From contig OX597814.1 of NCBI GenBank assembly GCA_951406725.2, positions 151,466,001 to 151,530,000 on the forward strand: a stretch of 64,000 nucleotides of DNA, in the 5' to 3' direction. The stretch is from Octopus vulgaris. Lineage: Eukaryota. The position numbers and the translations under genes are program-made. Shown here piece by piece: positions 16,613-17,497 of the stretch (position 1 is its first letter; each line of letters starts with the position of its first letter). Under the pieces are notes generated by a model, which searched no databases, was not told the origin of the DNA, and saw nothing but the letters and a program-made list of their open reading frames with translations.

Positions 16613-16818
16613 CTTTTCCTTTTCGTGTGTGTTCTCGCTTCACTTACTCCATTCTGTTCTTCTGCGGATACACGCCTTGGAAGAAAAGACTGGAGTAAGC
16701 GGAGCAAGAACAGTTGAATTAGGTACTTAAGTTGAAGCACCAAATCAGTCCGGTATTATCCGCACAGCTCGAAGTGACGAGAATAAAATCAAAATAAGCA
16801 ACAAGATATCAAGTGGTA

Positions 16819-16906
16819 ATGCAGTACGACCGTTTCAAGCGGCTCCATTTAATTGAACAATGCAATCATTACATCAATTTAAATGCAGTGCTATCTTCAG
16901 CTGCAC
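16819..16906 (-). ncRNA. Type I hammerhead motif with long stem II
   Basis: Minus strand: GTGCAG-CTGAAGA-TAGC..long hairpin..GCTT-GAAA-C-GGTC-GTA/CTGCAT. 6-bp stem I. The base of stem II is imperfect. Confidence 0.65.
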
Positions 16907-16963
16907 AAAATATAGAATTTTTTAACATACATACAGATAAGCAGCTAAAAAATTCTATATTTT

Positions 16964-17045
16964 GTGCAGCTGAAGATAGCACTGCATTTATGTAATGATT
17001 GCATTGTTCAATTAAATGGAACCGCTTGAAACGGTCGTGATGCAT
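16964..17045 (+). ncRNA. Degenerate hammerhead motif (mirror copy)
   Basis: CTGAAGA 16970-16976 and GAAAC 17028-17032 are present, but the triplet is GTG and the first stem I pair is lost. Confidence 0.5.
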
Positions 17046-17497
17046 TACTTGATATCCTGTTGCTTAATTTGAATGTGGATTCGTCCTTTAACTGGAGGTT
17101 TCAAAAAAAGACTTCTAACTTTGATTCTTCATACTTTACTGGGAGTTTACAGGCGTAAATTTGCAAAGATATAAAAGTAGTACTTGTATATAATGCATGA
17201 TGAATTTATGGAATGAAGTTCCATAAATCCCATCAAATTCTTTAAAAATGGAGGAAAAACAAGTTGTTAAAATTTATAAGTTTAATTCTTGCAGACGATC
17301 GTTTCGTACAAAGATATATAAATTCATGATTGAATTAAATTAAATTAATATCATCGTACTCTTCAGAGCAGGAAAGAGAGAAACCATATAACAAGGAACT
17401 TTAAAAAAGAATAGAGTCGAAAAAAATTGGATCTAGGAGAGTCATATTGGTATCCGTGTGACAAAGAGATGTCATGTCAAATATCCGACATTATATA

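Follow-up and report, generated by a model that had tools for sequence, protein, structure and literature searches.

The stretch of Octopus vulgaris DNA analysed here (64 kb, hereafter the window) contains a long palindrome whose two arms each carry a hammerhead motif, and this palindrome is very likely a head-to-head PLE insertion product. It would consist of two copies of the same PLE or retrozyme end, each hammerhead-bearing and heavily truncated on the 5' side, which are joined where they are truncated and have their 3' ends outward. A first-pass annotation of the same DNA had preferred an inverted duplication of a PLE end to a MITE, and this preference is supported by the PLE-like consensus features of the hammerheads, by the head-to-head layout and by the absence of any TSD above chance. 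The head-to-head arrangement of PLE ends is already published, and it is recurrent in the window.

Architecture of the palindrome

Inverted arms of about 130 bp around a 21-nt spacer had been noticed before, and alignment bears this out. The left arm (16789-16924, minus strand, 136 nt), a putative pLTR-like fragment of a 5'-truncated PLE end, reads leftward, and the right arm (16946-17072, plus strand, 127 nt), a second such fragment, reads rightward. Between them, at the head-to-head junction, folding and inverted-repeat search place an unpaired spacer of 21 nt (16925-16945), which may be either the loop of a fold-back or additional 5' sequence of one of the copies. The arm-versus-arm alignment has 136 columns, with 122 identities among 127 aligned bases, five mismatches and two gaps, which correspond to 6 and 3 nt absent from the right arm. 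As RNA, the palindrome is predicted to form a hairpin of -184.7 kcal/mol (z -27.1), and none of 100 shuffles is as stable. Long palindromes can come from fold-back chimeric reads. How probable is it that an assembly or library artefact of this kind has created the present one? Such a copy would be exact, and since the arms differ at five substitutions and two indels, the probability is close to nil.

Several other treatments of the arms were tried and set aside. Widening the boundaries to 16776/17085 and further was not adopted because the support is marginal: a faint similarity extends 60-70 nt past the arms (p 0.017-0.10 across four scoring schemes) and is lost with longer flanks (p 0.06-1.0). 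A/G and T/C differences between the arms were considered as fossil A-to-I edits, and the idea was rejected because five substitutions of five types are too few. An exact 25-nt pattern from the arm has no match in bacterial and archaeal genomes, which is uninformative for an animal repeat, and a sigma-70 scan of the spacer is irrelevant to eukaryotic DNA.

The two hammerheads

As had been claimed, both arms read outward from the spacer as hammerheads. Each has a type I layout. The better-preserved copy is on the minus strand (16819-16906), where it is identified by a descriptor match, a shuffle control and an anatomy table. Its parts are much as first described: stem I with six of six pairs (16906-16901 paired with 16824-16819), the core CUGAAGA (16900-16894) located by hammerhead search, a stem II region of 57 nt with an inner hairpin (16893-16837; -15.0 kcal/mol), the GAAA element (GAA at 16836-16834), the palindromic stem III ACGGUCGU of eight self-complementary nucleotides (16833-16826), and A17 of the NUH triplet GUA at 16825. 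The first-pass annotation overlooked that stem III is self-complementary in both arms, which is a hallmark of dimer-type hammerheads and the typical PLE form. The short palindromic helix III allows a dimer, with a predicted homoduplex energy of -5.8 kcal/mol in the minus copy.

Calling this minus copy intact goes too far. Stem I, the core and the NUH triplet are indeed present, but the G10.1-C11.1 pair that closes helix II is missing from both arms, where U follows A9 and U precedes G12, giving a U.U mismatch or a shifted A-U pair. The other tabulated hammerheads of the window, unlike both arms of the palindrome, have G at 10.1, and the G10.1-C11.1 pair stands above 80% in the PLE hammerhead consensus as given in PMC4209133. 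Thus, intactness of the minus copy is unproven, and it is better regarded as a variant than as a member of the consensus. The axolotl hammerhead HHR_Amex2, which naturally has a U.U mismatch at the foot of helix II, is still active, with 22% cleavage of the monomer (PMC7229834); by analogy, self-cleavage of the minus copy may be possible. When the minus arm is folded in isolation, the ribozyme-like fold has -19.7 kcal/mol against -24.0 kcal/mol for the free minimum, and the stem I pair probability is about 0.3.

The copy on the plus strand (16964-17045), delineated by the arm alignment and the anatomy table, is damaged. Its core lies at 16970-16976, stem III at 17031-17038 and G17 at 17039, so that the GUG triplet reported earlier is confirmed; this GUG results from a two-base difference, through which stem I loses its first pair (G2.1-C1.1) at 17040 as well. 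The stem II deletion, first counted as 7 nt, is 6 nt by alignment, and a second deletion of 3 nt directly past stem I had escaped notice. There is also a G-to-A difference in stem II. Closed stem II is predicted at -5.9 kcal/mol in the plus copy compared with -15.0 kcal/mol in the minus copy, the stem I pair probability is 0.0, and neither an NUH triplet nor a closed stem I is found. On these predictions, the plus copy is very probably inactive, and G17 is not the only cause. The view that G17 prevents efficient cleavage holds for minimal hammerheads, which are strongly impaired by it, but not for tertiary-stabilised ones, in which G17 is tolerated as far as PMC3884650 describes.

Does the contrast between a better and a worse copy have any meaning? 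Pairing allows three of the arm differences to be polarised, and all of them harm the plus arm; by our own arithmetic, neutral decay would give such one-sidedness with a probability of 0.25. A meaning in the contrast of an intact and a disabled copy is therefore unsupported, because three informative changes fall on one arm one time in four by chance and the supposedly intact copy is itself non-consensus. The arm differences fit ordinary decay after insertion, and one-sided damage is consistent with neutrality.

As for the hammerhead calls themselves, a strict descriptor, drawn up after the sequence had been seen and composed of elements of the published consensus (PMC4209133, in the part describing it), gives four matches in the window (16970 on the plus strand; 16900, 16607 and 9149 on the minus strand), two of which are the arms of the palindrome. 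The mean in 200 block-wise dinucleotide shuffles of the window is 0.01, and no match arose when the minus arm was shuffled 20000 times. The fit to the published PLE consensus extends over the U-rich 5' flank, CUGANGA plus H, GAAAN, the palindrome, NUH and the AU-rich 3' flank. With a loose descriptor, 14 rows for 12 cores were obtained in the window without a shuffle control, and eight cores are tabulated. The 3' half-motif by itself shows no enrichment (17 occurrences; shuffles give 8.2 on average and at most 18), which counts against the PLE-end reading. Rfam covariance models report no hammerhead at the palindrome, nor at the near-canonical 9149 copy which served as a positive control, and since the control is missed, the negative at the palindrome says nothing. 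Rfam miRNA matches over the palindrome, including mir-16 slightly above the gathering score, are driven by the hairpin and were taken as chance. MAFFT alignment of five hammerheads did not bring the cores of the divergent members into alignment.

Origin of the palindrome

How can two truncated ends of one element come to face each other? A single retrotransposition event seems most likely. In one route, the nascent cDNA would fold back at the spacer and copy itself; in another, cDNAs primed on both strands of the target would become joined, and a single copy looks the same under either. The insertion site would have lain between two microsatellites, in the midst of further PLE remnants. The hammerhead would be of the PLE type that requires a dimer and would be a passenger here, the element giving one sense copy per strand.

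Head-to-head is described as the most frequent arrangement of PLE copies, with palindromes at the junctions and self-priming proposed, and with TSDs of 8-10 bp or none (PMC3846280, in the relevant passages). Among the cases in PMC4209133 are pairs of hammerheads that lie 100-700 bp from each other on opposite strands, and a truncated PLE whose 5' end bears another hammerhead on the opposite strand, and an inverted 5'-truncated copy abutting the 5' end of a PLE is among those in PMC8557442. A PLE protein cuts and extends both target strands in vitro, where hammerhead cleavage is dispensable (an experiment in PMC11167929), and PLE ribozymes are stated in PMC6765202 to be active as dimers and slow, and PLEs to insert beside earlier PLEs. 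The O. vulgaris genome is credited with 31 recently active PLE families in a section of PMC13282606. If the arms were identical at birth, the change of about 2% per arm would give, by the calibration used in PMC13282606, a rough age of a few million years.

Some observations count against a PLE origin. Pfam detects neither a PLE reverse transcriptase nor a GIY-YIG domain in 283 of 283 ORFs, that is, all non-low-complexity ORFs of at least 55 aa in the window, whose matches are ankyrin, LINE-type RT, DDE and zf-RVT, and the palindrome is thus assigned to no parent PLE family. Self-BLAST finds no further copy of the arms within the 64-kb window. The palindrome has no TSD, unlike an analogous insertion at 9 kb, and the absence of G10.1-C11.1 from both arms points in the same direction.

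As to retrozymes, the head-to-tail tandem units by which they would be recognised are absent, the copies being inverted only. Four short motifs of the window are absent from one supplement file of PMC8557442, and searching found no literature on the palindrome's own octopod family, in a set of papers that excludes most subscription ones.

Could the palindrome rather be a MITE or foldback DNA transposon, with TIRs of about 130 bp and a captured hammerhead fragment, moved by cut and paste? Its size, its shape and its terminal inverted repeats fit, recent TIR and MITE insertions are reported in O. vulgaris (a section of PMC13282606), and there is a 3-nt direct repeat at the boundary 16790/17071. 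The latter is at chance level, since a repeat of at least 3 nt is found in 13% of 5000 random flank pairs. A scan for longer TSDs let the ends lie as far as 55 nt beyond the arms, to leave room for a PLE tail. Of 150 random pairs, 148 matched at least as well as the best candidate at the palindrome, whereas 1 outdid the 9-kb control; the scan is thus able to detect a genuine TSD, and the palindrome has none. The palindrome is also a single copy in 64 kb. To our knowledge, its ends fit no Tc1, hAT, piggyBac, Harbinger or CACTA terminus pattern, which further speaks against a MITE. With no TSD above chance and no transposase evidence, a MITE origin is quite improbable.

A different possibility is that only one PLE fragment was inserted by retrotransposition and the inverted duplication came later and independently, at the DNA level, by fold-back during replication or break repair. 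It would agree with the lack of a TSD, with the weak similarity past the arms, and with the three of eight short-spacer hairpins of the window that have no hammerhead. The weak similarity, however, vanishes with longer flanks, and head-to-head pairs are a documented signature of PLE insertion and recur in the window, so that a DNA-level fold-back is unlikely, if somewhat less so than a MITE. A head-to-head PLE insertion is still the preferred reading.

Hammerheads and palindromes elsewhere in the window

The window has at least eight hammerhead cores in 64 kb, plus several junction palindromes. The palindrome itself shares a 1-kb island, bounded by two microsatellites, with two hammerheads from different families (16607 and 17366, both on the minus strand), so that the segment 16455-17490 has minus-strand hammerheads of three different families (17366, 16900 and 16607) within 800 bp. 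The left neighbour (16455-16712, minus strand; core 16607), recognised by hammerhead and inverted-repeat searches, is a different hammerhead-bearing repeat which ends in a microsatellite and has its own 33-bp inverted duplication on the 5' side (16630-16712). A second, decayed copy of its family lies at 31665-31815 (near 31677), between microsatellites in intron 2 of the ankyrin gene, and shows compensating changes in stem II. The right neighbour (17285-17374, minus strand; core 17366) is a third, decayed hammerhead with a long AT-rich stem II, a G-C closing pair and a palindromic stem III, and the stem III palindromes of 17366 and 16900 are cross-compatible, with a predicted heteroduplex of -9.4 kcal/mol.

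The closest analogue within the window is a separate insertion (8928-9610) with divergent hammerheads at 9149 (minus) and 9450 (plus), which the first-pass annotation overlooked. The pair (9064-9535) has 112-bp inverted repeats that are 99% identical and a flanking duplication of 15 nt with one mismatch, a PLE-sized one; its two copies differ at one position, and in the plus copy stem III is no longer a palindrome as a result. The whole appears to be a young composite insertion, with 125-bp direct repeats 360 bp apart and inverted repeats of 112 and 71 bp. The minus-strand copies contain a segment of about 103 bp with CAG at its end, which the plus copy lacks at the matching junction; the segment is intron-like, with no GT start.

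Of 20 local inverted matches in the window, eight are short-spacer hairpins, five of which touch a hammerhead motif (the palindrome, 31403, 56227, 16630 and 62850) while three do not. The 31403 and 56227 hairpins have outward 3' half-motifs, and those at 16630 and 62850 are on the 5' side of a full motif. The former two palindromes (31394-31511 and 56227-56383) read outward through the 3' half of a hammerhead (GAAAC, palindrome, GUH) without the 5' core, and are probably pairs truncated within stem II. At 62850-62930, the 5' side of a plus-strand hammerhead (core 62869) is a perfect 24-bp palindrome. Palindromes with TA-rich ends at 45107-45329, 22510-22692 and 43708-43767 were searched for a hammerhead motif and have none. 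Loose searches gave further hammerhead-like cores at 35170-35249 (minus), 55683-55728 (plus) and 7097-7117 (plus), which may be chance.

Other repeats include LINE RT remnants (RVT_1), an inverted pair of LINE fragments, a DDE transposase remnant and a zf-RVT ORF (40003-42021, 47796-48426, 42866-43597 and 60019-60636), the last of which presumably resembles the end of a LINE with a restriction-like endonuclease. An abundant SINE-like short dispersed repeat, with about 80-90% identity, is found at 946, 5711, 6802, 14559, 14782, 15673, 49200, 52496, 52680 and 55860, among other places.

Folding in read-through RNA and the ankyrin gene

The first-pass annotation expected that in a read-through RNA about 130 bp of dsRNA would compete with the ribozyme fold. 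A duplex of about 127 bp is indeed predicted, but there is no real contest, since the hairpin is ahead by more than 100 kcal/mol: forcing the ribozyme in a read-through RNA would cost 109 kcal/mol for the minus copy and 115 kcal/mol for the plus copy, with stem I probabilities below 1e-70. Whichever strand is read through, the antisense arm is transcribed before the sense copy, and even in RNAs beginning at the spacer the predicted minimum fold is still not the ribozyme. The ribozyme copy would thus be buried in the duplex, leaving the element silent or a substrate as dsRNA. From these predictions, the element is probably an inert relic which, if transcribed, would serve as a dsRNA substrate instead of a ribozyme.

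As had been pointed out, the palindrome stands about 4 kb upstream of an ankyrin ATG: the ATG at 21071 is 4.0 kb downstream of the palindrome. This ATG corresponds to residue 1 of a protein from Argonauta hians, which is the closest of 12 matches to the ankyrin exon, with 69% identity, in line with the octopod origin of the DNA. By the match to this protein (P0002) from its first Met, the ankyrin-repeat gene has three exons at 21071, 28294 and 33401 (21071-33940). Just before the ATG exon, at 20973-20998, are motifs which we take to be CCAAT-like and ETS-like, and near 20264-20289 others that are presumably CCAAT-like and CRE-like.

Is it conceivable that the hairpin, or a one-way ribozyme, acts on the ankyrin gene, and that the plus-sense ribozyme was disabled by selection? 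In both complete pairs of the window, the damaged copy is on the plus strand, the same sense as the ankyrin gene, and octopus is reported to be rich in long dsRNA and hyper-editing (in part of PMC5625713). Two of two is, however, expected one time in four, the one change seen at 9450 is a transition of the CpG type, and the hairpin would silence either ribozyme regardless. The CCAAT-like and ETS-like motifs at 20973-20998 also suggest that transcription of the gene starts well past the palindrome, on its downstream side. None of the tests connects the palindrome with the ankyrin gene. A selected element is thus very improbable, more so than a MITE.

Implications and comparison with known systems

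As a single locus, the palindrome is of little weight; it is a clean, small case of an insertion product already known for PLEs, and it warns that a MITE-like hairpin in a cephalopod genome can turn out to be the end of a retroelement. The pattern at the level of the window is more useful. Collected genome-wide, such junctions could decide between self-priming and two-strand priming in PLE replication, and they would also test PLE ends as a source of the dsRNA heavily edited by octopus ADARs. A much bolder picture is suggested by the five of eight short-spacer hairpins that touch a hammerhead motif: miniature head-to-head PLE-end palindromes might form a distinct and very abundant octopod class, mobile as units through PLE enzymes in trans and so mimicking MITEs, with their hairpin RNAs as a main source both of the long dsRNA behind hyper-editing and of small RNAs silencing the parent families. 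We consider this picture speculative and rather unlikely.

Compared with the type I hammerheads of PLEs (Cervera and de la Pena 2014, PMC4209133, as far as its described families go), the palindrome shares the type I topology, CUGANGA with an extra base, GAAAN, the palindromic stem III, NUH and the U-rich and AU-rich flanks. It differs in having a stem II region of 57 nt where schistosome families have 7-8 bp, in being without G10.1-C11.1, in the distance of 70 bp between the cores and in the absence of a nearby PLE ORF. The inverted pLTR or head-to-head insertions of endonuclease-positive PLEs (as described in parts of PMC3846280 and PMC8557442) have in common with it the inverted 5'-truncated copy, the outward 3' ends, the palindromic junction and an optional TSD, whereas the octopus palindrome is without an ORF, a direct pLTR or an identifiable 30-40-bp tail. 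Each of its copies is reduced to about 130 bp, so that the entire insert is one hairpin, unlike these published insertions. Non-LTR retrozymes (in the accounts of PMC7229834 and bioRxiv 10.64898/2026.07.22.740005 drawn on here) are likewise non-coding, low in GC, equipped with a type I hammerhead and linked to PLEs, but they are head-to-tail tandems of 150-450 bp, while the palindrome has no tandem unit, its two copies being inverted. Finally, MITEs and other palindromic DNA repeats such as Xenopus Harbinger (the example in PMC5625713) share with it the form of a self-folding hairpin, here of about 280 bp, that would be an ADAR substrate if transcribed; the octopus palindrome is set apart from them by lacking a transposase-type TSD and by its arms, which are the ribozyme-bearing ends of a retroelement on the reading preferred here.
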